Positions 1 to 48,094 of a stretch of 64,000 nt of DNA are shown here, in pieces. A program made the position numbers and the translations under genes. The stretch is from Blastocatellia bacterium (GTDB taxonomy: Bacteria > Acidobacteriota > Blastocatellia > RBC074). The notes under the pieces are model-generated. The model saw only the letters and a program-made list of their open reading frames with translations, had not been told where the DNA came from and searched no databases. The stretch lies in the NCBI GenBank assembly GCA_035275345.1, contig DATEMY010000298.1, positions 1,290-65,289 of the forward strand, read 5' to 3'. Within the stretch, counting starts at the first letter, position 1. Every line of letters begins with the position of its first letter.

Positions 1-669
1 AATCGCGGACTGGCGCGTTATCAACTGGGCGATTACGAGGGCGCGATCGCCGATTGCAACCGCGCGATCTCGATCAATCCGCGTCTTTCCGACGGCTACA
101 ACACTCGCGGGCTGGTTCGCTTCATACAGAAAGATTACGACGGCGCGCTCCTTGATTTCGACCGCGCGATCGCGATCAGCGCGCGTGACCCCGAAGTTTA
201 CAACAATCGCGGCAATGCTTATGCGGAGAAGAATGATCTTGATCGGGCCATCGCCGATTTTGATCGATCCATCGCGCTCAACCCGCGCCTCACCGCGGTC
301 TATTACAATCGAGGTCACGCGCGGCGCAGGAAAGATGACGCCGACGGAGCGATGAAAGATTTCAACAAGGCTCTTACGCTTGATCCTCGTTTCGCCTCTG
401 GATACTACGGCCGCGCGGTAGCGCTATTCGACAGAAATGAATTGGATCGCGCGATCAACGAATTCAACCGCGCAATCGAACTCGATCCGCGCTTCGCTCT
501 GGCATACGGGAACCGCGGGCTCACCTTGTTGCGGCAAGGCAAGGACGCCGAAGCGGAAAAGGATTTCGAGCGTGTCGCCGCGCTCGATCCGGCGTTGAGG
601 ATCGAGGTGGAATTGCGCATCGAGAAAGTGAAGAAATGGAGGCAAGCGAGCCGCGCGGGAACAAATTGA
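1..669 (+). CDS. TPR-repeat protein, 5'-truncated by the window edge
   Basis: Frame 1 is open from nt 1; the listed ORF 352..669 is only its last Met. Translation gives about 6 tandem 34-aa TPR units with recurring 'Y(N/Y)NRG...A...D...AI.L(N/D)PR'. Confidence 0.85.
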   Translation, partial: NRGLARYQLGDYEGAIADCNRAISINPRLSDGYNTRGLVRFIQKDYDGALLDFDRAIAISARDPEVYNNRGNAYAEKNDLDRAIADFDRSIALNPRLTAVYYNRGHARRRKDDADGAMKDFNKALTLDPRFASGYYGRAVALFDRNELDRAINEFNRAIELDPRFALAYGNRGLTLLRQGKDAEAEKDFERVAALDPALRIEVELRIEKVKKWRQASRAGTN

Positions 670-740
670 GCTTTTTGTGAGCGGCGTGCGATTCCGGTAG
701 ACTACTTCGCGTCCCTCATATTTTCGCGAGGAGAATCAAG

Positions 741-2612
741 ATGAGGCGAGAAGTATTTGCGCGCTCCCTGCTCTATCTGGCGATCATTTCCTTCCTTCTG
801 TTCGATCAATCGGCGACCGGAGCGTCCACCAGTTCATCGTCAAATTGGTCGTCCAAATTCGATGGCAAAGTGAGGTTCCATCAGACGACCGAACTCGGCG
901 CATTGATCGTCGGAACTGAAAAATCGGTCTACGCCGTTGACGGCGAAACGGGCGAGGTCTTATGGCGCCGCAAAGACGCTCGCCTTGATGAAGCCGACAT
1001 CGCGCCTGTCGTTGGGACCGATCTATTGCTGTTGAGTTTTGAAAAAGGCGGGAAGACTCGCGTCGAAGCCGTTGACCTGATCGCGGGCAATACGCTGTGG
1101 CGTAGCGATAAGATCAAAGGCGGCGTGATGCAGATGGCCGTCGACCCGGAGAACGATCTGGCGGCCGTCGTTTTCGTACGTGACGCGAAAGACCAGCCTG
1201 GAGAGGGCTTCAAACGGCGCCCGACGGTCTACATGTTGAACCTGGCCACAGGCGAGGATTTGTGGAAGCGCGATCTGGACAGCGAGATCGAGATGACGCC
1301 CGCGCAATGGGGCGGAGACGGCGACGAGGCATTTTACACGCTCGACAATTACCGCGCCCCGTTCTTCCTGGACGGCCGGTTGTGGCTCTTTTATGAGGGC
1401 GTGACTTCGCTTGACGCTCGCACGGGGAAGGAGGGAATCAGGGAGAAATTTCGCGTCAACGAAGAAGGATTGGCGTTGACCGAAGCCGATCCGGTCGTTG
1501 ACGACCGCCACATCTATGTTTCGGGGCGAGGGCGTGTACGGGCGATCTCACGCGAGACGGGGCGCGAGGTTTGGGAGGCGAAAGACCTGGGCTTGACGCC
1601 GGAACTGATTCTGGCCAACGGCCTGCTTTTCGTCCGAACCGGCGGGCAATTTACACGATTGAAAGATGGCGACGTCGTCGAGCGCGGGCCTTACGGCGTC
1701 AGCGCGATTGATCCATCCAACGGCAAAACCCTCTGGCGCTACCGCGGCGCCGACAAAGGCATTACCAACATCGCACTCGCGAACGAGAGAACGGCGCTCA
1801 TCGCCGACCGCGACGAGTTGATTGCGATTGACACTTCGAACGGGAAGGTCGTCAATCGTCTTAAACACCGCATTGACCGCTCGGCGTTCGTCTTGATCAA
1901 TGAATTGGGGCAGGCCGTAATCGGCGGGCGCAATGAGATCGCCGGATTCGACCTCTCTCGCGGCGGCGAGGCTGTCTGGCGGGCTCGTCACAACCCTCCG
2001 GGACGCGGCGTATTGCGAACAATCGGAGCGATCACGGCGCGCGCCGCATCGATCTATTTTCGTTACGGCGGAGTCGCCACGACAGCGTTTCGCGGCGTTC
2101 AACTCGCGCGTGGCGTGAGCGCGCTCCGGTGGTCGGGGCTGGCCTCGCGCGCAGTTCTGCCGAACCTGACCGATTACGCCGCGGGCGCCGCTCGTGAATA
2201 CGTCACTTCGCAAATCAAGAGCTACGGCGTCATATCGCGCGCCGACCTCGCCCGGCGGACGGTTCGCGCGGCGCGGTCGCGGACGATCACACCGCAAATT
2301 TCAATCGATGTAGATGTCGAAGAGAGGTTGATGGATCGGCTCGATCCCGCGCATCAACTCGACAAGCTGTCGCGTTTTCTGGGGCGGCGAAGGCAACTGG
2401 CCGCTCTCCGCGGCCAGTTTATGTACTTTTACACCGAGCTGAAGCCGGAAGGCGGAAGAGGCTTGGCCGGCGTCAACCTGAACACCGGCCAGACCGAGCG
2501 AACCGTCGTGCTGGAGGACCTCGATTACCGGTTTTCAAACGACGAAATCGCCGGACTGATTTACGTCGCAAAAGACAATCGTTTGACGTCCCATAAAATC
2601 AGTACGAGATGA
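741..2612 (+). CDS. secreted PQQ-like beta-propeller repeat protein
   Basis: 623 aa with a hydrophobic N-terminal signal-like segment. Blade motifs recur: GEVLWRRKD, GNTLWRSDK, GEDLWKRDL, GREVWEAKD, GKTLWRYRG. Confidence 0.7.
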   Translation: MRREVFARSLLYLAIISFLLFDQSATGASTSSSSNWSSKFDGKVRFHQTTELGALIVGTEKSVYAVDGETGEVLWRRKDARLDEADIAPVVGTDLLLLSFEKGGKTRVEAVDLIAGNTLWRSDKIKGGVMQMAVDPENDLAAVVFVRDAKDQPGEGFKRRPTVYMLNLATGEDLWKRDLDSEIEMTPAQWGGDGDEAFYTLDNYRAPFFLDGRLWLFYEGVTSLDARTGKEGIREKFRVNEEGLALTEADPVVDDRHIYVSGRGRVRAISRETGREVWEAKDLGLTPELILANGLLFVRTGGQFTRLKDGDVVERGPYGVSAIDPSNGKTLWRYRGADKGITNIALANERTALIADRDELIAIDTSNGKVVNRLKHRIDRSAFVLINELGQAVIGGRNEIAGFDLSRGGEAVWRARHNPPGRGVLRTIGAITARAASIYFRYGGVATTAFRGVQLARGVSALRWSGLASRAVLPNLTDYAAGAAREYVTSQIKSYGVISRADLARRTVRAARSRTITPQISIDVDVEERLMDRLDPAHQLDKLSRFLGRRRQLAALRGQFMYFYTELKPEGGRGLAGVNLNTGQTERTVVLEDLDYRFSNDEIAGLIYVAKDNRLTSHKISTR

Positions 2613-2631
2613 TCTTACGCAACAATGCGCC

Positions 2632-4983
2632 TTATGCGGCTTTGGGAAGAGTCAACCGCTTAGCCAGATCGGGGATTGCTGCGGCGAGCACATCCTCGAC
2701 CCGCTCGGCGAAGACGAACTCCATCTCGGCGCGCGCATTGTCGGGCAATTCGCGCAGGTCCTTCTGGTTCTCCTTGGGGAGAATGGCGCGGCGTACGCCG
2801 GCGCGGCGCGCGGCCAACACTTTCTCTTTCACCCCTCCGATCGGCAACACGAGTCCGGTCAGAGTGATTTCGCCGGTCATTGCCGTGTCGCTGCGCACGG
2901 GCGTGTTGGTGTAGATCGACGCGAGAGCCGTCGCCATAGTGATGCCCGCCGAAGGGCCGTCTTTCGGGATAGCTCCTGCCGGGACGTGGATGTGAACGCC
3001 TGAACGGCGGACGAGGTTTGGGTCAATGCCCATCCGCTCGGCGTGCGCCCAGATAAAACTCTGCGCGGCCTTGGCCGATTCCTGCATGACCTCGCCCAGG
3101 TGACCTGTCAGCGTCATCCCGCGTCCGGCTGGCAGCAGCGTGGCTTCGATGTACAACACGTCGCCGCCGGTCTCGGTCCAGGCCAGTCCGGTCGCAACGC
3201 CCGCAGGCAACTGTTTACGCGTCATCTCGAACGAGAAGCGTTCGGGTCCGAGCATCTCAACGAGGTCTTCGACCCGGACGGTCACGGCCGTCGTGTCGCC
3301 TTCGGCAAAGCGGAGCGCGACGCGACGCGTCAGGCTTCCGATGGCGCGTTCAAGCTGGCGTACCCCCGCTTCCCTCGTGTATCGCCCGATGACCTGGTTC
3401 AGCGCTTCATCGGTCAGGATGAACTGCTGATCCGTCAATCCGCTCTCTTTCAACTGGCGCGGGATCAGATAGCGATGCGCTATCTCAACCTTCTCTTCCG
3501 CGCTGTAACCGCTCAGGCGCAGCATCTCCATGCGATCCAGCAATGGCGACGGAACTGTGTCGGTGGTGTTCGCGGTGGTGATGAAGAAAACCTTGGAGAG
3601 GTTGAAGGGAAGATCCAGATAGTTGTCGCGGAAAGTGTGGTTCTGCGCCGGGTCCAATATTTCCAGCAGCGCCGCCGCCGGATCACCGCGAAAATCGCGT
3701 CCCAGTTTGTCCACCTCGTCGAGCATCAACACCGGGTTGTTCGATTCGGCGCGGCGCATCGCTTGAATAATGCGACCCGGCATCGCGCCGATGTAAGTGC
3801 GGCGATGGCCGCGCAGTTCGGCTTCGTCGTGCATTCCTCCGAGCGAGATGCGCTCGAATTTGCGCCCGAGCGAACGCGCGATAGATTGTCCGAGCGAAGT
3901 CTTGCCGACGCCCGGCGGACCCACGAAACAGAGGATCGGGGCGTTGGCTGTCGGATTGAGTTTGAGCACGCCCAGATGTTCGAGGATTCGCTCCTTGACG
4001 TCCTTCAAATCGAAATGGTCTTCGTCGAGCACCTGCCTGGCGTGCGCCAAGTCGAGGTTGTCTTCGGTGCTCTTGGCCCAGGGCAGTTCGAAGACCATCT
4101 CCAGATATGTGCGGATGACGTGATAATCAGGCGAAGCTTGCGGCAACTTCTCCATCCGCGACAATTCGCGCTCGGCCTCTTTGCGAACGCCTTCTGGCAA
4201 CTGGGCTTCATCCATTTGCTTGCGCATCATCTCGGCGTCGGCCTGTTCGGGGTTGGTCTCGCCCAATTCTTCCTGGATGGCGCGCAGTTGCTGGCGAAGC
4301 AGATATTCACGCTGCTGGCGTTCCATCTCGCCCTGCGCCTGGGTGTTGATCTGGTTGCGCAGTTCCAGCACCTGCAGCTCATGCAGCAGGTATGAATGGA
4401 GCAGTCGCAGCGCGTCCAGACGCGATGGGGCTTCGAGCAGTCCCTGCTCTTTCTCGACCGGCAAACCGAGCACCGATCCGATCAGGTAAGTGAGCTGTAG
4501 CGGCTCTTCGTTCTCGGCGAGCATCTGCGTCACCTCGATCGGAGCGTTTGGCTGCGCAAGTTGGATGGCTCGAGCTGAGAGCTCCAGGATCGCGCGGCGC
4601 ATCGCCTCGATCTCAGTATTCGTCTCGTCCGGCACGGGCGCGATGCGGACGCGCGCCCTGATGTATGGCTCGAGCTGCTCGATCTTGACCAAAACCACGC
4701 GCTCCACGCCTTGCACTATCAGGTTCACCGCGCCGTCCTGACGCCGCATCATCCGTTTGACCACGGCCTTGGTCCCGATGGTGTAAAGGTCCTCAGCGCC
4801 GGGCGTTTCGATTGATGTGTCACGTTGCGTGATGATCAGCAACTCTTTGTCTTCGTTCGCCAGCGCCGCGTCGATCGCGGCGATCGAGGTGGGGCGCCCC
4901 GCTGTAAGCGGCATTAACAGTCCCGGAAACAGCACGCTGTTCTTGATCGGCAATATGGGCAGGCTTTCAATCTGTTCGTTCAT
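2632..4983 (-). CDS. lon: ATP-dependent Lon protease (endopeptidase La)
   Basis: 783 aa. Has an N-terminal LON domain, Walker A GPPGVGKTS, and the proteolytic-domain motif PKDGPSAGITMATAL with the catalytic Ser. Confidence 0.97.
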   Translation of the reverse strand: MNEQIESLPILPIKNSVLFPGLLMPLTAGRPTSIAAIDAALANEDKELLIITQRDTSIETPGAEDLYTIGTKAVVKRMMRRQDGAVNLIVQGVERVVLVKIEQLEPYIRARVRIAPVPDETNTEIEAMRRAILELSARAIQLAQPNAPIEVTQMLAENEEPLQLTYLIGSVLGLPVEKEQGLLEAPSRLDALRLLHSYLLHELQVLELRNQINTQAQGEMERQQREYLLRQQLRAIQEELGETNPEQADAEMMRKQMDEAQLPEGVRKEAERELSRMEKLPQASPDYHVIRTYLEMVFELPWAKSTEDNLDLAHARQVLDEDHFDLKDVKERILEHLGVLKLNPTANAPILCFVGPPGVGKTSLGQSIARSLGRKFERISLGGMHDEAELRGHRRTYIGAMPGRIIQAMRRAESNNPVLMLDEVDKLGRDFRGDPAAALLEILDPAQNHTFRDNYLDLPFNLSKVFFITTANTTDTVPSPLLDRMEMLRLSGYSAEEKVEIAHRYLIPRQLKESGLTDQQFILTDEALNQVIGRYTREAGVRQLERAIGSLTRRVALRFAEGDTTAVTVRVEDLVEMLGPERFSFEMTRKQLPAGVATGLAWTETGGDVLYIEATLLPAGRGMTLTGHLGEVMQESAKAAQSFIWAHAERMGIDPNLVRRSGVHIHVPAGAIPKDGPSAGITMATALASIYTNTPVRSDTAMTGEITLTGLVLPIGGVKEKVLAARRAGVRRAILPKENQKDLRELPDNARAEMEFVFAERVEDVLAAAIPDLAKRLTLPKAA

Positions 4984-37144: not shown

Positions 37145-37234
37145 AGGAGGTACACGGATTTAACGGATCGCTACGGATCGTCACAGATCAATCCGTGGAA
37201 ATCCGTAGCGATCCGTTAAATCCGTGTACCTCCT
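37145..37234. repeat. perfect 34-bp-stem hairpin with periodic arms (ACGGATYN units)
   Basis: Segment 37145-37178 (aggaggtacacggatttaacggatcgctacggat) is the exact reverse complement of 37201-37234. Confidence 0.95.
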
Positions 37235-37270: not shown

Positions 37271-38716
37271 ATGAACCGAATTCAACACCTCTATCAAAAG
37301 CTTGAAAAGCCAGTGTCACGCCGCTCGTGGTTGCGCGCCGCCGGATGCGGTTTCGGCTATCTAAGTCTGTCGGCGTTGCTGGCCGATGAATTCAAGGCGC
37401 TGGCCGCGGCGCAGGATAACCCGCTCACCGTCCGCCAGCCGCATTTCGAACCGAAAGCCAAGCGCGTGATCTTTCTGTTCATGCACGGCGGCCCGTCTTC
37501 GATTGACACATTCGATCCGAAAGAACGCCTGTCGCGCGACCACGGCAAGCCGTTGCCCATTAAACGACCGCTCGCTTTCGCCGACGGCCCCGTCGGACCT
37601 TTGATGAAACCGCTATGGGAGTTCAAGCCCGGCGGCAAGAGCGGCATACCGGTCAGCGACCTCTTCCCGCATATGCGTGAATGCGCGGATGACCTGTGCG
37701 TCATTCGTTCGATGGTGGGCGAAGGCGTGGATCACGGCGCGGCGTTGTTGCAGACCTTCACCGGCACTTCGACATTCATCCGCCCGAGCATAGGGTCGTG
37801 GGTGGTTTACGGACTGGGGACCGAGAATCAAAACCTGCCCGGTTACATCACGATCAAACCTGCGCTCTCGCACGGCGGCGCGAAGAACTGGTCGTCGGCG
37901 TTCCTGCCCGGCGTTTACCAGGGCACGGCCATCGGGAATTCTGGGCTGAAAGTGGACGATATCAAGAACGAGCCGATTGAATACCTGCTCGGCAAACACT
38001 TCTCGCCCGATGAGCAGCGCTACGAACTGGAGATGCTGCGGAACATCAACAACCGTCACAAAGCCCTGCGCAAGCAGGACGGGCAACTCGAAGCTCGCAT
38101 CCAGGCCTTTGAGTTGGCGTTCCGCATGCAGGCGCAGGCGCCGGAAGCCTTTCAGGTCGAGAAAGAGTCCGAAGCGACGAAGAAACTTTATGGGCTGGAT
38201 GATCCAATCACACAGGATTTCGCCTGGCAATGCATCCTGGCCCGCCGCCTGGCGGAACGCGACGTGCGTTACGTCCAATGCACGCACAGCTACAAATGGG
38301 ATCAGCACAGCGACCTCTACAACCTCCACACCAAGAACGCCCGCGAAGTCGACAAGCCCATCGCCGGGCTTCTGAAAGACCTCAAAGCGCGCGGTCTGTT
38401 GAAAGACACGCTGGTCATCTGGGCCGGCGAATTCGGGCGAACGCCGGTCAGCGAGAGTGGCGACGGACGCGACCACAACCCTTACGGCTATTCGATCTGG
38501 ATGGCCGGCGGCGGCCTCAAAGCCGGATTCGTCTACGGCGCTACAGACGACATCGGCTACCACGCCGTCGAAGACCGCATGCATATCCACGATTTCCATG
38601 CGACCGTGCTGCATCTGCTCGGACTCGATCACGAGCGATTGACCTACCGGTACAGCGGGCGCGATTTCCGGCTGACTGATGTGGCCGGAGTTGTGGCGAA
38701 GAAAATCATCGCATAA
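37271..38716 (+). CDS. DUF1501 (sulfatase-fold) protein with Tat-type signal
   Basis: 481 aa with SRRSWLRAAG, FLFMHGGPSSIDTFDPK, GEFGRTP and [10 protein letters not shown]. Confidence 0.9.
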   Translation: MNRIQHLYQKLEKPVSRRSWLRAAGCGFGYLSLSALLADEFKALAAAQDNPLTVRQPHFEPKAKRVIFLFMHGGPSSIDTFDPKERLSRDHGKPLPIKRPLAFADGPVGPLMKPLWEFKPGGKSGIPVSDLFPHMRECADDLCVIRSMVGEGVDHGAALLQTFTGTSTFIRPSIGSWVVYGLGTENQNLPGYITIKPALSHGGAKNWSSAFLPGVYQGTAIGNSGLKVDDIKNEPIEYLLGKHFSPDEQRYELEMLRNINNRHKALRKQDGQLEARIQAFELAFRMQAQAPEAFQVEKESEATKKLYGLDDPITQDFAWQCILARRLAERDVRYVQCTHSYKWDQHSDLYNLHTKNAREVDKPIAGLLKDLKARGLLKDTLVIWAGEFGRTPVSESGDGRDHNPYGYSIWMAGGGLKAGFVYGATDDIGYHAVEDRMHIHDFHATVLHLLGLDHERLTYRYSGRDFRLTDVAGVVAKKIIA

Positions 38717-38791
38717 GTGGGCTGAGAGCGCAGCGACTGCGGAATACGCGAACGCGAAGTGAGAGCAATGAAAACAGCGGTCACGGAGCGG

Positions 38792-39070
38792 ATGATGGAT
38801 GTTGGTTTTGTTTGGGACGAAACAAAATATCAGACTGTTATCAAGCAGCATAACGTCAATTTTTACGAGGTTGTCGCCGCTTTTGACGACCCTGCCGGAT
38901 ACGAAGCGCCAGGGCTGGCTGAACACGAAGATCGCTGGCTATGGATAGGCCGGACACCCTGGGATCGTTTGCTGATGATTGTGTATACTGATCAAGACTT
39001 ACCGTTGCTTCGAATTATCACCGCGTTTGACGCGGAAGGGAGATGGGTTGATGAATACTATGGAAGATGA
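38792..39070 (+). CDS. brnT: BrnT-family (DUF497) toxin
   Basis: Reads FVWDETKYQTVIKQHNVNFYEVVAAFDDP...RLLMIVYT...LRIITAFDAEGRWVDEY. ATG 38792 follows GGAG; the ORF opens at 38759. Confidence 0.72.
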   Translation: MMDVGFVWDETKYQTVIKQHNVNFYEVVAAFDDPAGYEAPGLAEHEDRWLWIGRTPWDRLLMIVYTDQDLPLLRIITAFDAEGRWVDEYYGR

Positions 39071-39383
39071 GGATTTTGATTATCAGACATATATGCGGGA
39101 AACGCCGCCAGACCCGGCGCAGATTCGGCGCGGGACCGCCGCCCGCCAGCAACGCCTGGATGCGGCGCTCAGACGACAGGCGATCCGCATTGACCCGGAT
39201 ATTCTTCAACAGTTCAGCCAACTTGCCTCCGAGGGACAAAGCGCTGAGCAGTTGATCAATCAAGCCTTGCGTCAATGGCTCGCCGCCGATGGAATCAGAG
39301 AAATGGTACGCGCCGAAATTCAACTGGCCGTCCGGCAATCGCTGTCCGCTACTCAGCCTACCCAGGAATCGCCGCCAGCTTAA
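39051..39383 (+). CDS. brnA: BrnA-like antitoxin
   Basis: The start overlaps the brnT 3' end by 20 nt. The C-terminal IRIDPDILQQFSQLASEGQSAEQLINQALRQWL fits the BrnA pattern as I recall it. Confidence 0.68.
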   Translation: MNTMEDEDFDYQTYMRETPPDPAQIRRGTAARQQRLDAALRRQAIRIDPDILQQFSQLASEGQSAEQLINQALRQWLAADGIREMVRAEIQLAVRQSLSATQPTQESPPA

Positions 39384-39399
39384 CCGCCAACGATTGATG

Positions 39400-39782
39400 T
39401 CGAGCAATCGAGGCAGGCGAAGACCTAGGCGGCGCTGGTCCGCGACTTGAAACGGCGTGGGTTGCTGGACTAGACGCTGGTCATCTGGGCCGGCGAATTC
39501 GGGCGCACGCCGGTCAGCGAGAGCGGCGACGGACGCGACCACAATCCTTACGGCTATTCGATCTGGATAGCCGGCGGCGGCATCAAGGCCGGATTCGTCT
39601 ACGGCGCCACGGACGACATCGGCTACCACGCCGTCGAAGACCGCATGCACATCCACGATTTCCACGCGACCGTGCTGCATCTGTTGGGATTGGATCACGA
39701 GCGTTTGACTTACTGATACGGCGGGCGCGATTTCCGGCTGACTGACGTGGCCGGATTCGTGGCGAATAAGATTATTGCCTGA
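39400..39782 (+). pseudogene. degraded duplicate of the DUF1501 C-terminus
   Basis: Segment 39474-39782 aligns by eye to 38408-38716 at roughly 85-90% identity. Two in-frame stops are present: gac-tag at about 39469 and tac-tga at about 39711. Confidence 0.85.
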
Positions 39783-40017
39783 CTGCCTTTAGTGTGTGAG
39801 GCTGAAGTCTTGAATTGAACCAGCCACACTGCTTGGTAGCGGAAAGCAGCTTCTGTCTAATGGCGGGAAGAAGGCTCTACCTACTATTAGGTGAAAATGG
39901 TTACTATCGGGAAGCGATGTCAAGTAGTGGCCATCTTAGTCACCAGCATATCTGTGGCTGGGGAGGCATAAGGAGATCACAAGGCAGAATCTATTCTAAT
40001 CAACATCGAACTAAGCT

Positions 40018-40410
40018 ATGAAGGTTGAGATAACAGACAAGGATACGTGCGATATATTTATAGTGGATGATGAGCCTGTTATAGTAGACCTTATTTGTTA
40101 TTTGCTTCGAGAATACTTTCCTTCAATTCGGATCGAATTCGCGTTTAATGGCCAAGATGCCTACACGAGAATGGAGAAGATTAAACCTAAAATCGTTTTG
40201 ACAGATTTGGCAATGCCCGTGATGAACGGTTGGGATCTAATTAAGATCATCAAACTAGATCCTAATCTGAAAGAAACTAAGATTGTTGTTTTAAGCGCAC
40301 ATAGCCGTAGTGAAGATAGAATAAAAGGCATGCAGTTGGGTGCGGATCGGTATCTTTGTAAGCCATGTGAACCAGAGGAGATATTCGTTGCCATTCGACA
40401 ATTGTTATAA
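40018..40410 (+). CDS. stand-alone CheY-like response-regulator receiver domain
   Basis: 130 aa with an acidic pocket (VDDE), phospho-acceptor (VLTDLAMP), VLSAH and CKP. Codon usage is AT-rich. Confidence 0.9.
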   Translation: MKVEITDKDTCDIFIVDDEPVIVDLICYLLREYFPSIRIEFAFNGQDAYTRMEKIKPKIVLTDLAMPVMNGWDLIKIIKLDPNLKETKIVVLSAHSRSEDRIKGMQLGADRYLCKPCEPEEIFVAIRQLL

Positions 40411-40454
40411 ATTCGAGTGCTAATTCTGAGACCCGCAAACTGAGTTAAAACACT

Positions 40455-41672
40455 ATGTCGCAGCCAAGCATACTAATTGTTTTTAGCAATCCTGAAGACT
40501 CGGGGCGATTAAGACTTGATCGAGAACAAAGGATTCTGGACGAGATACAACGAAAATATAATACTAAAGACACGATTCGTATTTTGTCAGCAGCCACGAT
40601 CGAGGACCTTATTAACTCATTAAGACAACCTTTCCTTCGGATTGTTCACTTCTCTGGGCATGGCTCTCCACATGGTGTTTATTTTGAGGCATCTCCTACC
40701 TCAGGCACGGGGGTTGAATTGGCTTCAGATAAACTTGCAGGACTTATCAACTCACATGCTCCTCAGGTGGAGGCTCTAATACTTGCATCTTGTTATTCTG
40801 CTGACAGCAATCTTGTTTTAAGGCAAGCCGCCCCTTACGTCATTACTGTTGAAGGGCCAGCAGATGATAACGCAGCTATCAAATTTACAAAATCCTTCTA
40901 CGAGAATTTTTTCGAGTCGCAATCTGTAGAAATATCATTGACAAGAACGCAAATTGAACTACAAAGTCTCGAGTTAGACGAGGGATTGCAAATATATGTG
41001 ACGCGCCGAGGAGAGTATTTATCGAAAGACCGTGTGACACTTCAATCAATCAAGCGCACTTTTGATGAAGAAACGTTCCTTATTGATGTAACAGATATAA
41101 ATGATCAAATTGACAAGCTAGACATGCCTAAGGGTAAATTTCTTTCTTTACTTGCTAACAAAATATACATTCACAAGTGGCTTTATTATAGCTCGTTTGA
41201 TATGGAATATGCTGTTTTCCCCATCGGCAAGTATTTCGCCATATTTTCTTGGAAGCATGGCATGGATCTACTTGTATGTCGTCGTATACTGCGATTGAAA
41301 GAAAAAGTGCCTGATGAGCAGTGTGACCTGTGGATGCGATTAAGTTTCCGATATTGTCAATTATTTTCCTTGCAATATCGTAGAGAGCGGCAAGCCATCT
41401 ATCCAGGCATAAACAAGAAGCTAGAGTTTGCAATCCGGCAATTTGGTAGTTGCGTAACTAGCTTTTTTGAGAATCGGGAATCTTTGTCGCACCTTAAGAA
41501 CATAATTCCAGAGCAAATCAAAATGGCGGTCCCTCTTTTAATTGAAAACTATAATGCTGCCCAAGAATCTTTACACCAAGAGGATTACTCTCAAGTGATC
41601 GTCCACCTTGAAACGACGCTATCGTTGATTCATGGCATTTTGGATGGCCTGGTTGATGAATTAGCAGCTTGA
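40455..41672 (+). CDS. CHAT (caspase-like) domain protein with an uncharacterised C-terminal half
   Basis: 405 aa. The N-terminal 175 aa read ILIVFSNPEDSGRLRLDREQRIL...IVHFSGHG (His)...ALILASCYSA (Cys)...DDNAAIKFTKSFYENF. I recognise no motif in the remaining 230 aa. Confidence 0.7.
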   Translation: MSQPSILIVFSNPEDSGRLRLDREQRILDEIQRKYNTKDTIRILSAATIEDLINSLRQPFLRIVHFSGHGSPHGVYFEASPTSGTGVELASDKLAGLINSHAPQVEALILASCYSADSNLVLRQAAPYVITVEGPADDNAAIKFTKSFYENFFESQSVEISLTRTQIELQSLELDEGLQIYVTRRGEYLSKDRVTLQSIKRTFDEETFLIDVTDINDQIDKLDMPKGKFLSLLANKIYIHKWLYYSSFDMEYAVFPIGKYFAIFSWKHGMDLLVCRRILRLKEKVPDEQCDLWMRLSFRYCQLFSLQYRRERQAIYPGINKKLEFAIRQFGSCVTSFFENRESLSHLKNIIPEQIKMAVPLLIENYNAAQESLHQEDYSQVIVHLETTLSLIHGILDGLVDELAA

Positions 41673-41684
41673 TCTTGAGTAAAC

Positions 41685-42578: not shown

Positions 42579-42724
42579 ACTCGCGCCGCAAGACGGGGAA
42601 TGCCAAAACTCTTCCCACGAATATTTTTTCACCGCTTGATCCTTTTTTACCTTTGGTTACGCGTGATGAGAAGGGGGCAATTACTAAACGTCCCTCGAAA
42701 ACTTTAACCAAGAAGGAAAATGAC

Positions 42725-43459
42725 ATGAACACCAAAGTGACCGAAATTGCCCCATCTGTGTACCGAATCTCCACGTTTCATCCTGACTTCGGCATACAAT
42801 TCAACCAATTCCTTATTAAAGATGACGAGCCATTCCTGATGCACACGGGATTCAGGAAGATGTTCTCCATCACGTTTGAAGCTGTCTCTTCCATCATCGA
42901 TCCATCGAAGCTACGATGGATCGGGTTCAGTCACTTCGAGTCTGACGAATGCGGGGCCTTGAACGAATGGCTGGGGATTGCGCCACACGCGCAGGCTGTG
43001 TGTAGTTTCGTCGGCGCGACGGTGACGGTGGATGATTTCGCCGACCGCCCGGCTCGCGCGCTCAGCGATAATGAGACGCTCGAAATTGGGAGTCATCGTC
43101 TTCGGTTTCTAGCGACGCCTCATGTCCCGCATTCCTGGGACGCGGGGCTTTTCTTCGAGGAGAATGACCGGACGCTTCTGTGTTCCGATCTGTTCTTTCA
43201 TCCCGGAGATCCCGAGCCGATGATCGAGTCGGGCGTCGTGGAACGCGCGCGTGAATCCATCATCGCGGGCATGGCTGGGCCTCTGGCGAAGGACATGCCT
43301 TATACGCCTTATACGGATAGCGCGCTTCAACGGCTCGCCGCGCTTGAACCGCAGACTCTCGCGTTGATGCATGGGTCGAGCTTCCGGGGCGACGGTCGCG
43401 CGGCGATTATAAGTCTTGCGGAGATAATCAGGGAGATGATAGGTAAGCCCCAGTCTTGA
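42725..43459 (+). CDS. MBL-fold metallo-hydrolase-like protein
   Basis: Reads FLMHTGF...[12 protein letters not shown]...[12 protein letters not shown] 42725 follows AAGGAA. The upstream ORF part (from 42380) overlaps the Nif3-like gene. Confidence 0.7.
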
Positions 43460-43612
43460 GTTGGACTCAGAGTGGAATCCAGGCGCGAAAGATGGTTTTC
43501 CTGGAGAGTTGGGATGAAGACAATAGGGGACGTAAACTGTATCGGGCCAGAGTCAACGGCTGAGTATTAATTGTTACCGTAAGAATTGCAGTCTGATAAG
43601 AGGAATTAGCCC

Positions 43613-44149
43613 ATGTTTTGCCCGACCTGCGGTAAGGAAAATTCACTCGGACGGAAGTTTTGTGCGGCCTGCGGAACTAATCTTGAGGCTGTCTCCCAGG
43701 CATTGTCTGGAAGCAAAACCGACTTTTTTACCAAGATCGATACGGCGTTGGATCAATTGATAGCGAAGTATGCTGAGCATGTCTTCAAAGATGCGCCAGC
43801 AAATACCGTTGATGCGAAAGTAAGCAAATCTTGGAAGCTTCTTGGTCAGGGCGTGCTGGCTTCGTGGATGGACATAATCCTTTTCAGTCTGATGTGGAAC
43901 ATTTTTCCGCTTAGATTCATGATTCTACTGATCTCCTCGCCTATCAGGCTGCTCTACGAGCGAAGCAATCGTCAGAAGACCATAAAAGCGGAGATTGAAG
44001 GACAAGCAGAGCTTAAACTGCTCGCCTCGGAGACAAACGATATGCTACCTAAATCGGTGTCAAGTATTAGTGAGCATACGACTGAGAGGCTGCAAGAGTA
44101 TCGGCGCCAAGAGCAAATGCAGGTTGCGGAACCGAAGACTCCGAAATAG
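43613..44149 (+). CDS. zinc-ribbon membrane protein
   Basis: Has an N-terminal CPTCGKEN...CAACGTNL zinc ribbon followed by TM segments. Confidence 0.6.
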   Translation: MFCPTCGKENSLGRKFCAACGTNLEAVSQALSGSKTDFFTKIDTALDQLIAKYAEHVFKDAPANTVDAKVSKSWKLLGQGVLASWMDIILFSLMWNIFPLRFMILLISSPIRLLYERSNRQKTIKAEIEGQAELKLLASETNDMLPKSVSSISEHTTERLQEYRRQEQMQVAEPKTPK

Positions 44150-44167
44150 CTTTGCTGAAAGTAGGCT

Positions 44168-45400
44168 ATGGGCCAGTCCAAGCAGGGAATACGCCAAATC
44201 CGGGCTACCTGTTGCGTTGTCGGCGGCGGGCCATCTGGAATGATGCTTGGGCTGCTGCTCGCCCGCGCTGGCGTCGAAGTAATCGTGCTCGAAAAGCACG
44301 CGGACTTCTTCCGCGATTTTCGTGGCGACACCATCCATCCCTCCACGTTGGAGCTGATGCATGAGCTGGGGATGCTCGATGAATTCCTGCGGCTGCCGCA
44401 TCAGGAACTGCGCCGGGTGAAGATCAAGTTCGAGGACGAGGAGATCGCCGGTCCCGACTTTTCGCATCTGCCGACGCGGTGCAAATACATCGCCATGATG
44501 CCGCAATGGGATTTCCTGAACTTCCTCACGACGCAGGCGAAGCGTTACCCGACATTCCAACTGCTGATGAAGGCCGAGGCCACCGGGCTGATAGAGGATG
44601 GTGAGCGGATTGTCGGCGTGAGAGCGAAGACGGAACAGGGCGAATTGGATGTGAGGGCCGATCTGGTCGTAGGCGCCGACGGGCGGGATTCTCTTCTGCG
44701 TGAGCGAGCCGGAATGGAGGTCGAGGATTTTGGCGTGCCCATTGACGTGTTGTGGTTTCGAATCGCGAAGAGCGCAGAGGATGCCGAACCGGCGTTGGGA
44801 CGGATCAGGGACGGGAAGATGATGGTCACAATCAATCGTGGGGATTATTACCAATGCGGCTACATCATTCGCAAAGGCGCTTTTGAAGGGATCAAGCGGA
44901 GAGGGCTGGAGGCGTTCCGCGATGAGATTGTGGGCGTCGCGCCCTTTCTGAGAGATACGGCGCCCGAGATTGATGATTGGGATAAAGTCAAACTGCTGAC
45001 CGTGCAAGTGAACCGTCTTCTCCAATGGTATCGACCGGGGCTATTGTTCATCGGCGACGCCGCGCATGCGATGTCTCCCGCGGGCGGCGTTGGCATCAAT
45101 CTGGCGATACAGGATGCGGTGGCGTCGTCCAACCTGCTCGCTGACAAACTCCGCCGGGGGAATTGCGGGACCAATGATCTCCGCCTGGTGCAGCAAAGGC
45201 GGGAGTGGCCGGCGCGCATGACCCAGGCGATTCAGATCTTTATTCATCGCCGCATGTTCGGGTCGAGGTCCGATCCGGGCAGGGCTCTCTCTTTCCCGTG
45301 GCCAGCGCGAACGCTTCTCTGGTTATTGACTCCTCTGTTGCGCCGCGTCGCTGCGCGTGTGATCGGTATCGGATTTCGCGCGGAACACATACGCGGTTAA
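44168..45400 (+). CDS. FAD-dependent monooxygenase (UbiH/aromatic hydroxylase family)
   Basis: Motifs VVGGGPSGMMLGLLLARAGVEVIVLEK, GADGRDS and GDAAHAMSPAGGVGINLAIQDA are present. Confidence 0.85.
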   Translation: MGQSKQGIRQIRATCCVVGGGPSGMMLGLLLARAGVEVIVLEKHADFFRDFRGDTIHPSTLELMHELGMLDEFLRLPHQELRRVKIKFEDEEIAGPDFSHLPTRCKYIAMMPQWDFLNFLTTQAKRYPTFQLLMKAEATGLIEDGERIVGVRAKTEQGELDVRADLVVGADGRDSLLRERAGMEVEDFGVPIDVLWFRIAKSAEDAEPALGRIRDGKMMVTINRGDYYQCGYIIRKGAFEGIKRRGLEAFRDEIVGVAPFLRDTAPEIDDWDKVKLLTVQVNRLLQWYRPGLLFIGDAAHAMSPAGGVGINLAIQDAVASSNLLADKLRRGNCGTNDLRLVQQRREWPARMTQAIQIFIHRRMFGSRSDPGRALSFPWPARTLLWLLTPLLRRVAARVIGIGFRAEHIRG

Positions 45401-46160: not shown

Positions 46161-46373
46161 AACGCGTACATTCCTTTTCTAGAGGTCTTGCCGGCATATC
46201 AAGGCCAGGGTGTGGGAAAAGAGCTGGTCAGAAGGATGTTGGAAAGGTTGAGTGATTTGTACGCCGTTGATTTACTATGTGATCCGGAATTACAGTCTTT
46301 CTACGCGAGCTTGGGGATGTGGCAAGCTCACGGAATGATGATTCGTAACTACGAGCGCCAGACAGGCAAGTAG
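46161..46373 (+). pseudogene. C-terminal fragment of a GNAT acetyltransferase
   Basis: The frame opens just after TAA 46158. It reads NAYIPFLEVLPAYQGQGVGKELVRRMLERL (acetyl-CoA loop), and no N-terminal half is present. Confidence 0.55.
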
Positions 46374-46558
46374 CGCTTCAGGTAGCTGTGAGCAACAGGT
46401 AATTATCCACAAAGTGACACGAAGGGGCGCAGGGATTTTACTTCCTTTGTGATTTTTCGGGTTCTTTGTGGACGGTTTTTCCGCAGGAATAGTGAAAACT
46501 TTTGGCGCCGCGGGGCGCGGCGCGGAGTTCGGGTCATAACGAAGTGACAAGCAAATAC

Positions 46559-48094
46559 ATGGTGAAAACAATGAAACGATTTCTAAGAAGTTTTCTGGTG
46601 TCATTCGGCGCGCTCTTGACCGTCACGGCCAATGTTGCAACGGCAGTGTACGCCGATATCAAACTACCCTCGATCATCTCTGAGGGCATGGTTTTGCAAC
46701 AGGGAATCAATGTGCCGCTGTGGGGCTGGGCAGATGAAGGAGAATCGGTCGCCATTGAATTTCAGGGCCAGAAATTCACCACAATGGCGAAAGGTGGCAA
46801 ATGGATGGTTCGACTGAAGCCGCTCAAAGCGGGCGGCCCGTTTACTCTCAGCTTGAGCGGCAAAAACAGAATCGAATTTAAGAATGTGCTGGTCGGCGAG
46901 GTCTGGATCTGCGGTGGTCAATCGAACATGGGGTGGCGGCTCAACCAGTCCGACAACGCCGACGCCGAGATCGCGAGCGCGAAATACCCTATGATCCGGC
47001 TCTTCAGCGTGCCGCGCGCGGAAGTTGACACGCCAGTGATCGACGTGAAGGCCGAATGGAAAGAATGCTCACCGGAGACCGCCGCTACATTTTCAGCCGT
47101 CGGCTATTATTTCGGACGCGACTTGCACAAAGCGCGCAACGTGCCGATCGGTTTGATCAACAACGCCGTCGGCGGCTCGCCCGCGGAATCGTGGATGAGC
47201 GCCGTGGTTCTCGACGCCGACACCGAGTACAAACAGTTCAACCCGGATTACCAGAAACGGATGGAACTGTACGAGAAGGCGATGGAGAAGCAGAGGGAAG
47301 ACGCCGAGAAGGCGAAGGCCGAAAACAAGCCTGCGCCGCGCGCCCCTGGCAAACCGTGGATGCCATCGGGGTTGTATAACGGGATGCTCGCGCCGCTTGC
47401 TCCTTATGGGATCAGAGGCGCGATCTGGTATCAGGGTGAATCCAACGCCGGGCGCGCTTATCAATATCGTCGTTTATTCCCGACGATGATCACCAACTGG
47501 CGCGCGCTTTGGGGGCAGGGGGACTTCCCGTTCCTGTTTGTGCAGCTTGCGGCGTTCGGCCCCAATTCGCCGAAGCTTGGCGAAAGCGATTGGGCTGAGC
47601 TGCGCGAGGCGCAGTTGATGACGCTCAGCGCTTTGCCGAAGACCGGGATGTCCCTGGCGATTGATGTCGGGACTTATGACGACATTCATCCTCGAAATAA
47701 GCAGCCGGTCGGATCGCGTCTTGCCCTGAGCGCGCGCGCCATAGCCTACGGCGAGAAGATCGTTCACTCCGGCCCGGTCTATCAATCAATGAAGGTTGAA
47801 GGCGGTAAGGTCTCACTCAACTTTAACCACATCGGCGGCGGTTTGGAAGCGCGCGGCGGCGAGCTGAAAGGCTTCATCATCGCCGGTGATGACAAGGTCT
47901 GGCGCGAAGCGAAGGCCGAGATCAAAGGCGATCACGTGATTGTGTCCAGCGCCGAAGTGACGAATCCAGTAGCCGTGCGCTACGCCTGGATGAAATTCCC
48001 GACCTGCAATCTGTACAACAAAGAAGGGCTGCCCGCCACGCCGTTCAGGACCGATGATTGGCCGGGCGTCACGCAAACGAAGGTGGCCCCATAG
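46559..48094 (+). CDS. sialate O-acetylesterase-like (SASA/DUF303) carbohydrate esterase
   Basis: Has a signal peptide and the [10 protein letters not shown] catalytic motif. The start is 46559 or 46571. Confidence 0.82.

Follow-up and report, generated by a model that had tools for sequence, protein, structure and literature searches.

A stand-alone receiver beside a caspase-fold CHAT protease in an AT-rich islet of a Blastocatellia genome: a possible conflict cassette with phospho-carrier partners

Introduction

Caspase-like proteases have recently come to be recognised as executioners in bacterial immunity, in SAVED-CHAT/PCaspase, in type IV Thoeris and in Avs-Pepco/EACC1, and to our knowledge the input in every characterised case is a nucleotide signal or a STAND sensor. 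A 64-kb stretch of a Blastocatellia genome (contig DATEMY010000298.1, positions 1,290 to 65,289 of the forward strand), hereafter the window, raises the question of whether such a protease might also answer to the phosphorylation state of a small protein. The window contains an AT-rich islet in which the gene for a CheY-like stand-alone receiver (REC) is followed by the gene for a CHAT-domain protein, and the original prediction, made from the sequence alone, had supposed that phosphorylation of REC licenses the caspase-like protease.

We assign a probability of roughly 45% to a composite interpretation, namely that the islet is a mobile conflict or defence cassette in which a caspase-fold protease with a regulatory C-terminal domain is gated by a recruited phospho-carrier. 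The components of this interpretation differ in strength, and each is taken up below together with the evidence that bears on it.

Results

Composition and gene content of the islet

39783..41684, no strand: AT-rich islet, 41.1% G+C with a drop in third-codon-position G+C (GC3), read as a horizontally acquired two-gene cassette
40018..40410, plus strand: stand-alone REC protein, 130 amino acids (aa); PF00072 match, E 5e-24; phospho-acceptor Asp63 at 40204-40206
40455..41672, plus strand: CHAT plus C-domain protease, 405 aa, stop codon included
40455..40982, plus strand: predicted caspase-fold CHAT domain, residues 1-176; His69 at 40659-40661, Cys113 at 40791-40793
40980..41669, plus strand: family-specific C-terminal domain (C-domain), residues 176-405; H240 at 41172-41174, W266 at 41250-41252, H393 at 41631-41633

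The islet has a G+C content of 41.1% against a window mean of 56.9% (standard deviation 3.2% for windows of 1900 bp), and it is the lowest-G+C 1900-bp window of the whole 64 kb. The shift in composition occurs at most about 50 nucleotides (nt) from the ends of the islet. GC3 is 0.389 in the REC gene and 0.374 in the CHAT gene, compared with 0.70-0.80 in the flanking genes. The sharp drop that had been estimated by eye in the original prediction (about 40% against about 60%) is thus borne out by the computed profile, and in codon usage the two genes are clearly unlike their flanks. As had also been read from the sequence, the islet carries two genes that run in the same direction with 44 nt between them, and it has no kinase, TPR, NACHT or gasdermin gene. 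Both genes are foreign, and because the same low G+C is common to both they were probably acquired together. A similar tendency is seen across the family, whose gene lies at least 5 GC points under a flank in 10 of 19 tabulated loci (the window included), several of the remaining loci having little or no flank. We regard the identity of the protease family and the foreign origin of the cassette as nearly certain.

A protease family of fixed architecture

The 405-aa protein is 100% identical to an NCBI entry annotated as "CHAT domain-containing protein" from a Blastocatellia metagenome-assembled genome. Residues 8-174 match the Pfam CHAT profile (PF12770) with E 3.4e-11 and 43.6 bits against a cut-off of 24. 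The catalytic dyad that the original prediction had recognised, His69 (FSGHG) and Cys113 (ASCYS), does not vary among 19 diverse homologues and is conserved at 90% or more in 56 representatives. When a profile of the family is compared with SAVED-CHAT (PDB 8tl0) the match extends over residues 5-184 with E 9e-27, and the dyad motifs line up with HFIGHG and NACC of that protein. The same structure is the top Foldseek match (E 1e-8) of an AlphaFold2 model with a mean predicted local distance difference test score (pLDDT) of 81.6; caspase-4 and caspase-11 (E about 1e-3), separase and the anti-sigma factor DdvA come next with less significant matches (range E 1e-3 to 5e-2). To judge from sequence and predicted fold, the N-terminal domain is a catalytically competent caspase-fold CHAT protease of the SAVED-CHAT clade.

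The whole protein belongs to a single family of fixed two-domain architecture. A word-index search returned 11 other full-length homologues at 33-70% identity, and an exhaustive search of 1.84 billion representative proteins with a profile of the C-terminal half returned 140 clusters, so that the family comprises about 140 clusters at 50% identity. Nearly all members are about 400 aa long and carry the C-domain at about residues 175-405; a 56-sequence profile used in the word-index search enlarged the family hardly at all. Phage and plasmid records gave N-terminal CHAT matches only, in other architectures, and the sole NCBIfam match of the protease is to HetF, with an E of 4e-4 that falls far under the cut-off. 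The phyletic distribution of the family is patchy and marked by horizontal transfer.

A conserved C-terminal domain

The original prediction had found nothing recognisable in the last 230 residues, and this judgement stands. The C-terminal half matches no Pfam family in any of 11 members, and a profile search found no PDB sequence match. An AlphaFold2 model of residues 176-405 (pLDDT 81.8, predicted template modelling score 0.80) shows a four-helix bundle preceded by a small alpha/beta subdomain, and Foldseek searches of PDB and BFVD with this model returned nothing below E 0.02. FAT, PsbQ and designed bundles, all with E above 0.02, share only a generic four-helix likeness with it and were not adopted as relatives; HPt, PRD, CheZ, SAVED, SLOG and Macro were not among the top 50 structural matches.

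Residues invariant in the 56 representatives comprise A46 and three residues of the C-domain (H240, W266 and H393), with C275, R309 and E386 conserved at 90% or more. Since the invariant residues besides A46 all lie in the C-domain, the C-terminal half is constrained at least as strongly as the catalytic dyad. What this half may do is suggested by P0075, a 559-aa family member at locus L112 (loci and proteins of the comparison are denoted by L and P numbers). P0075 begins with a TIR domain (E 4e-19), and in its CHAT domain neither catalytic residue survives (FSGHG has become FVGRG and the cysteine is gone), whereas its C-domain is intact and preserves H240, W266, C275, R309, E386 and H393. P0075 is an effector swap, and because it exchanges the effector yet retains the C-domain, the C-domain can be read as the regulatory or sensor module and the N-terminus as the output. 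The gene order at L112 (positions 1-4150) is TIR protein, histidine kinase, REC, a 53-aa open reading frame (ORF) and P0075, which amounts to a full two-component input.

At the boundary between CHAT domain and C-domain lies a pair of arginines, R184-R185 (41004-41009), of which the second never varies and the first is found in 16 of 19 homologues. The linker just after it is of low confidence in the model (pLDDT below 50 at residues 185-189). By analogy with related bacterial caspases, which cut after arginine, the pair could be a putative autoprocessing or hinge site.

The receiver and its counterparts in other genomes

All residues needed for phospho-transfer had been reported as kept in the window REC, and alignment with CheY agrees: D17/D18, D63 (in LTDLAMP), S93 (LSA) and K115 (CKP) correspond to CheY D12/D13, D57, T87 and K109. 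With the Response_reg profile match given above, the protein is, as far as its sequence tells, phosphorylation-competent. Its best homologue among 5.8 billion proteins is only 41% identical, leaving it with no close relative, and PADLOC assigned it weak, non-specific matches to SduA and PDC-M60B only. A motif-level test of the 64-kb window detected no second REC and no histidine-kinase H-box or G2-box.

If the neighbourhood of REC and protease reflected a common function, it might be expected to recur. Among 27 distinct genomic contexts of family members, scanned with a REC profile and Pfam, 11 have a REC gene as the immediate neighbour on the same strand:

REC upstream of the family gene: the window, L006, L098 (overlapping start), L100 (two RECs), L105 (REC-GerE), L112, L113 (pentapeptide-repeat-REC fusion)
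REC downstream of the family gene: L010, L013 (REC-GerE), P0089 (overlapping stop), P0092

In 10 of the 11 the distance between the two genes ranges from a 4-nt overlap to 48 nt; at L112 the 53-aa ORF lies between REC and the family gene, and the histidine kinase is immediately 5' of REC. The acidic pair and the phospho-acceptor aspartate are kept in all nine partner RECs with readable sequence, those of P0089 and P0092 being known from a precomputed Pfam label only. The threonine/serine and lysine positions are likewise clear, except in the degenerate REC of L010, in an alignment that leaves out L112.

In about 983 kb of unrelated loci there are 7 REC ORFs (approximately 0.7% of genes), and the chance expectation of an adjacent REC was taken as about 1.4-4% per context. 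The binomial probability of 11 in 27 is then about 3e-9 when calculated naively at an assumed 4% per context, and about 6e-4 when kinship is handled, crudely, by counting six independent events. Because it is low even with six events, the association of REC and protease, as far as gene order can tell, is real and not a product of chance; it is also optional. A functional link between the two proteins is in our judgement likely.

The partners are a heterogeneous set. Across loci the partner RECs are 19-47% identical (the tandem RECs of L100 are 62% identical) and of several types, hence not orthologous. The pattern is one of repeated recruitment, or rapid turnover, of a receiver beside a conserved core gene. 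The expectation that REC and CHAT genes would be found together elsewhere is therefore upheld by the 11 of 27 contexts, and the pairing extends across phyla, but the pair is not fixed and the nearest relatives are without REC. That orthologues of the window REC travel with the protease was considered and set aside, the best identity of that REC being 41% and that of the partner RECs 19-47%, so that co-inheritance of the exact pair is not demonstrable. A convergent 142-aa ORF at L001 (7328-7756, minus strand) beside the 62% homologue was also considered as a REC partner; it begins 'VLIIEDD...IVDMM' and bears a weak likeness to the first half of a receiver, with no Pfam match, and was not counted.

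A second type of phospho-carrier partner

Three planctomycete members (L014, L015 and L042) form one clade with 50-57% identity among themselves and are without REC. Directly 3' of the family gene, at -4 to +17 nt, each has a gene for an EIIA-2 (PtsN-type) protein of the phosphotransferase system (PTS):

L014 9197-10262: two EIIA genes
L015 9203-10005: EIIA, then HPr
L042 9304-9801: one EIIA gene

The active-site histidine motifs are kept in both kinds of protein, as G-x-A-x-P-H in EIIA and as GLHMRP in HPr. REC has no kinship with EIIA/HPr in fold or chemistry; what they have in common is that they are small proteins whose phosphorylation state is read by partners or passed to a histidine. 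Because the planctomycete partner is a PTS EIIA, the theme among partners is a phospho-carrier rather than CheY as such. The recruitment of both REC and EIIA/HPr, as seen in the gene neighbourhoods, is the best reason to suppose that phosphorylation is the relevant input to the family.

Conflict-related contexts of the family

Several members lie among genes of biological conflict. At L100 and L097 a convergent Trypco1/Pepco gene adjoins the protease gene (E 7e-26 and 1e-23); Pepco is a pore-forming toxin that is activated by an associated protease (bioRxiv 10.1101/2025.11.14.688446). At L100 (4620-7021) the resulting REC-REC-protease-Pepco cassette is wedged between two FtsX/MacB permease genes, and L097 (936-1253) has the same Pepco arrangement. 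The 47% homologue at L007 (1-2108; L009 67-2512) sits between the 3' end of hsdR and an N-terminal fragment of HsdM, in type I restriction genes, HsdR being assigned by reading of the translation with no profile match. One member has an IS21 element, an HNH gene and a gene of the Schlafen/AlbA_2 type as neighbours, and a NACHT-Mrr gene lies some 6 kb upstream of it; other members are near integrases, and one is in a type IV secretion system (T4SS)/conjugative region. TIR genes are found fused and upstream in L112 and about 3 kb from P0092, and the neighbourhood of L013 includes an FHA-Ser/Thr kinase. CHAT domains of the same clade are also fused to AbiTii, nSTAND2, NACHT, AAA and TIR modules. 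The defence or conflict role put forward in the original prediction is plausible in light of these contexts (Pepco, restriction, TIR and mobile genes), and we consider a defence role of the family somewhat better supported than its opposite.

A separate cluster at L069 (1262-10612, Caldilineaceae) encodes a 1649-aa REC-GAF-histidine kinase, a REC-TCAD9/APH-like protein, a 220-aa stand-alone CHAT of the same clade, NUDIX, and nSTAND1 with a winged helix. This is a receiver-linked CHAT in a conflict system of the ternary type.

Surroundings of the islet

38759-39070, plus strand: brnT (PF04365, E 8e-14, 52 bits, above cut-off)
about 39051-39383, plus strand: brnA-like gene (PF14384, E 3e-4, 21.4 bits against a cut-off of 26.1)
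39420..39782, plus strand: pseudogenised DUF1501 duplicate, a copy of the last ~120 codons; left border of the islet
39815..40021, plus strand: ORF of 68 aa with a TTG start, overlapping the REC start; probably not a gene

The remaining window is housekeeping DNA with genes for glycogen enzymes, DnaK/DnaJ, ClpB, Lon, PEP carboxylase and glpX, and outside the islet it holds no recognisable defence system. There are no direct repeats flanking the cassette itself and no tRNA or integrase gene in the window, and an Rfam scan of the window found no RNA family. Given housekeeping surroundings with no defence system, integrase or tRNA, the islet is a small isolated insertion and not a piece of a defence island. 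The accessory or defence-island setting that had been proposed from the adjoining brnTA pair and gene fragment is therefore correct as to the neighbours and not as to the setting. The brnT and brnA-like genes (38759..39383) form a candidate toxin-antitoxin pair that is a neighbour outside the cassette; other neighbours are the DUF1501 fragment and NIF3. The 68-aa ORF, which had been offered as a possible gene, found no counterpart in Pfam, PADLOC or NCBIfam, nor did the REC profile match it, and it is probably spurious.

A direct repeat of 300 nt (38378-38677 and 39444-39743, 90% identical) accompanies the left border. Its second copy, broken by three in-frame stops, duplicates the 3' end of the DUF1501 gene (37271-38716). 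The brnTA pair sits exactly between the two copies, and the REC-CHAT islet begins right after the second. The arrangement looks like the scar of an insertion that carried its own replacement gene end.

Other irregularities were seen in the window. A 44-nt inverted repeat (91% complementary, 2-nt loop, 37145-37234) lies between the DUF1553 (PSCyt/PSD) and DUF1501 genes; it occurs once in the window and matches no Rfam family. Milder low-GC patches (0.47-0.50) follow the islet at 42600-43000, 43400-44200 and 46200-46800, one of which spans a 178-aa zinc-ribbon-like ORF (43613-44149). Many of the PADLOC models for DpdF hit one protein of the window, and those for PsyrT and PDC-M37B hit single proteins (E down to 2e-47); these matches may come from the same protein, and the DpdF-matching protein is probably a housekeeping helicase or ATPase rather than part of a defence system. 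Other PADLOC cross-matches in the window come from Lon, AAA and amylase genes.

Discussion

How a phospho-carrier might gate the protease

The mechanism that we favour is one in which we infer a physical interaction, a direction of gating, substrates and a role in defence. The C-domain would hold the protease in check and receive the input. The phosphorylation state of the partner would be set, in the window, by an unlinked kinase or by acetyl phosphate, which are proposed because no kinase is encoded nearby. The partner would then bind the C-domain, or pass its phosphate to it, and so switch the protease on or off; phosphorylated REC could license the protease, as originally suggested, or could restrain it. 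Once released, the protease may cleave cellular targets, or the adjacent Pepco in some relatives, with growth arrest or abortive infection as the outcome.

A more specific version of this mechanism would make the C-domain a new kind of phospho-switch, in which the universally invariant H240 and H393 of its four-helix bundle, together with a conserved H-x-E...H stripe on the last helix, take phosphate from a captured phosphorelay protein (REC, EIIA or HPr) or read its state, so that the cassette guards the charge of the two-component system or PTS and fires upon infection or energy collapse. We consider this version quite unlikely.

Relation to known systems

The closest relative by fold is SAVED-CHAT of type III-B CRISPR-Cas (PDB 8tl0; bioRxiv 10.1101/2023.06.23.546230), whose CHAT domain is homologous and whose logic, a protease joined to a separate regulatory domain, is the same. 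The order of domains is reversed, however, with CHAT at the N-terminus in the present family, and the regulatory half is not SAVED (no Pfam SAVED match and no match to 8tl0). The islet has no CRISPR, Cas10 or PCaspase, no cas-type family is among the 25 most frequent of the 77 families found for window ORFs, and the partner is a phospho-carrier rather than a cyclic oligoadenylate.

There is a resemblance of another kind to Detocs, which consists of a kinase (DtcA), a stand-alone REC that acts as a buffer (DtcB) and a REC-effector (DtcC) (bioRxiv 10.1101/2023.01.24.525353). In both cases two-component parts stand beside a cell-damaging effector, a stand-alone REC has an intact aspartate, and effectors are swapped within the family; the L112 relative is even ordered kinase, REC, (TIR)-CHAT/C-domain. 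The window, by contrast, has no kinase, its effector has no REC of its own, PADLOC gives no convincing match, and a CHAT protease is not among the Detocs effector types named in the text consulted (PNP, REase, TOPRIM and TM).

Type IV Thoeris, with its caspase PsCaspase, is recognised by a TIR gene within one gene of a caspase-like gene (bioRxiv 10.1101/2024.10.24.620036). Two family members have TIR near or fused, whereas there is no TIR gene in the islet, in its flanks or in most contexts, and by this operon criterion the cassette is not type IV Thoeris; a plasmid search found no relatives in Pseudomonas or E. coli. The members at L100 and L097 fit the logic of protease-Pepco modules, in which a protease activates a latent pore-former (PMC7159879; bioRxiv 10.1101/2025.11.14.688446). 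The window islet has no Pepco or other recognisable effector, unlike these, and the direct targets of its protease would have to be cellular proteins.

Receiver domains with no kinase have been noted alongside caspase or trypsin peptidases in vWA-MoxR/ternary and iSTAND conflict systems (PMC7159879, PMC8195603). Those systems are built on vWA-MoxR or STAND NTPases, none of which is present here, although REC-TCAD9 beside a short CHAT at L069 resembles them. The original prediction held a stand-alone receiver paired with a CHAT protease to be an undescribed arrangement. For the specific family and pairing this holds: no description of the CHAT plus C-domain family or of its pairing with REC or EIIA was found in the literature that could be searched, and no paper turned up whose full text combines CHAT domain, receiver domain and caspase. 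What is new here is the regulatory domain and the phospho-carrier input; the kind of system, a protease conflict module with exchangeable sensors or effectors, is known.

Weighing the alternatives

Several observations count against a phospho-carrier-gated defence cassette. The four nearest relatives (L012, L001, L004 and L007, at 70%, 62%, 50% and 47% identity) have no canonical REC neighbour. At least eight contexts with both flanks present have no phospho-carrier at all (L001, L004, L007, L020, L104, L106, L109 and L111), in a sample drawn from metagenomic contigs of which several are short, so that the partner-less count is uncertain. Because the partner-less contexts include the nearest relatives, the core function must be able to do without the partner; members that lack one also keep H240 and H393 invariant, and the function of these residues therefore needs no linked partner. 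The partner RECs are heterogeneous, and the two that are NarL-type transcription factors could simply regulate transcription. The window has no kinase and is otherwise housekeeping DNA, no PADLOC model matches the protease, and the family has no relative in IMG/VR and no full-length member in phage or plasmid records.

The plainest alternative is that REC and protease are adjacent by chance or arrived on the same fragment with no functional link. The lack of a canonical REC beside the closest homologues would fit, as would a window REC that has no close relative and whose co-inheritance with the protease is not demonstrable. An adjacency of 11 in 27 where about 1.4-4% is expected is difficult to reconcile with it, however, even at the more conservative of the two probabilities calculated above, and the tight or overlapping gaps, the same orientation and an anomalous G+C common to REC and protease speak against it as well; we hold it to be very improbable. 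A rather unlikely but weightier alternative is that the sensor is the C-domain itself, with a small-molecule second messenger or a phage component as its ligand, and that REC or EIIA is an accessory, be it a buffer or safety catch in the manner of DtcB, a transcriptional regulator or a kinase-independent switch. The SAVED domain plays the sensor part in SAVED-CHAT. Sensing by a C-terminal domain has been hypothesised for the type IV Thoeris caspase (bioRxiv 10.1101/2024.10.24.620036), DtcB offers a precedent for REC as a buffer, and receiver domains that act with no histidine kinase are on record in conflict systems (PMC8195603). The many members with no phospho-carrier neighbour are consistent with such a sensor, as are the six C-domain residues H240, W266, C275, R309, E386 and H393, which are kept whatever the partner in the way of a ligand pocket, the two partners that are REC-GerE transcription factors, and the TIR domains near or fused in L112 and near P0092. 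Yet TIR, cyclase and Cas10 are missing from the islet and from most contexts, the C-domain has no detectable likeness to SAVED, SLOG, Macro or other nucleotide sensors, and the recruitment of two chemically different carriers (the Asp-type REC and the His-type EIIA/HPr) with intact phospho-sites points to phosphorylation as the input.

It may also be asked whether the family is immune at all. Like HetF, DdvA or separase, it might be a signalling protease that processes or degrades two-component or PTS parts, possibly the neighbouring REC or EIIA, in the service of stress or developmental control, in which case the islet would be a transferred regulatory module. Regulatory CHAT proteases do exist, and both the sub-cut-off NCBIfam match to HetF (E 4e-4) and the presence of DdvA among the Foldseek matches are in keeping with this, as are the signalling neighbours (REC, EIIA, HPr, the histidine kinase and the FHA-Ser/Thr kinase of L013) and the housekeeping character of the window. 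A patchy, horizontally transferred distribution is not what a regulatory protease would lead one to expect, nor are members in restriction-modification operons and near integrases, insertion sequence (IS) elements and T4SS genes; the adjacency to Pepco and the swap to a TIR effector typify conflict systems rather than housekeeping regulators, and the partners are not conserved orthologues, unlike a dedicated substrate. A non-immune role therefore seems to us quite unlikely. Set beside these alternatives, a mobile conflict cassette gated by a recruited phospho-carrier is the interpretation that we retain.

Implications

If this interpretation is true, it would add a new input logic to caspase-fold proteases, in which the phosphorylation state of small carriers from two unrelated signalling systems is what is read. 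The family defines a new regulatory domain of ~230 aa with few invariant, directly mutable residues. Confirmation would carry the 'defensive two-component' idea known from Detocs over to proteases and the PTS, and would supply a compact two-gene system (about 1.65 kb) for asking how a caspase-fold enzyme is kept silent. Were the phospho-switch version to prove true as well, it would be the first link of the PTS or of phosphorelays to protease-based immunity. Should the family turn out not to be immune, it would still tie phosphorelays to regulated proteolysis, in a way so far unrecognised, in Acidobacteriota, Planctomycetota and their relatives.

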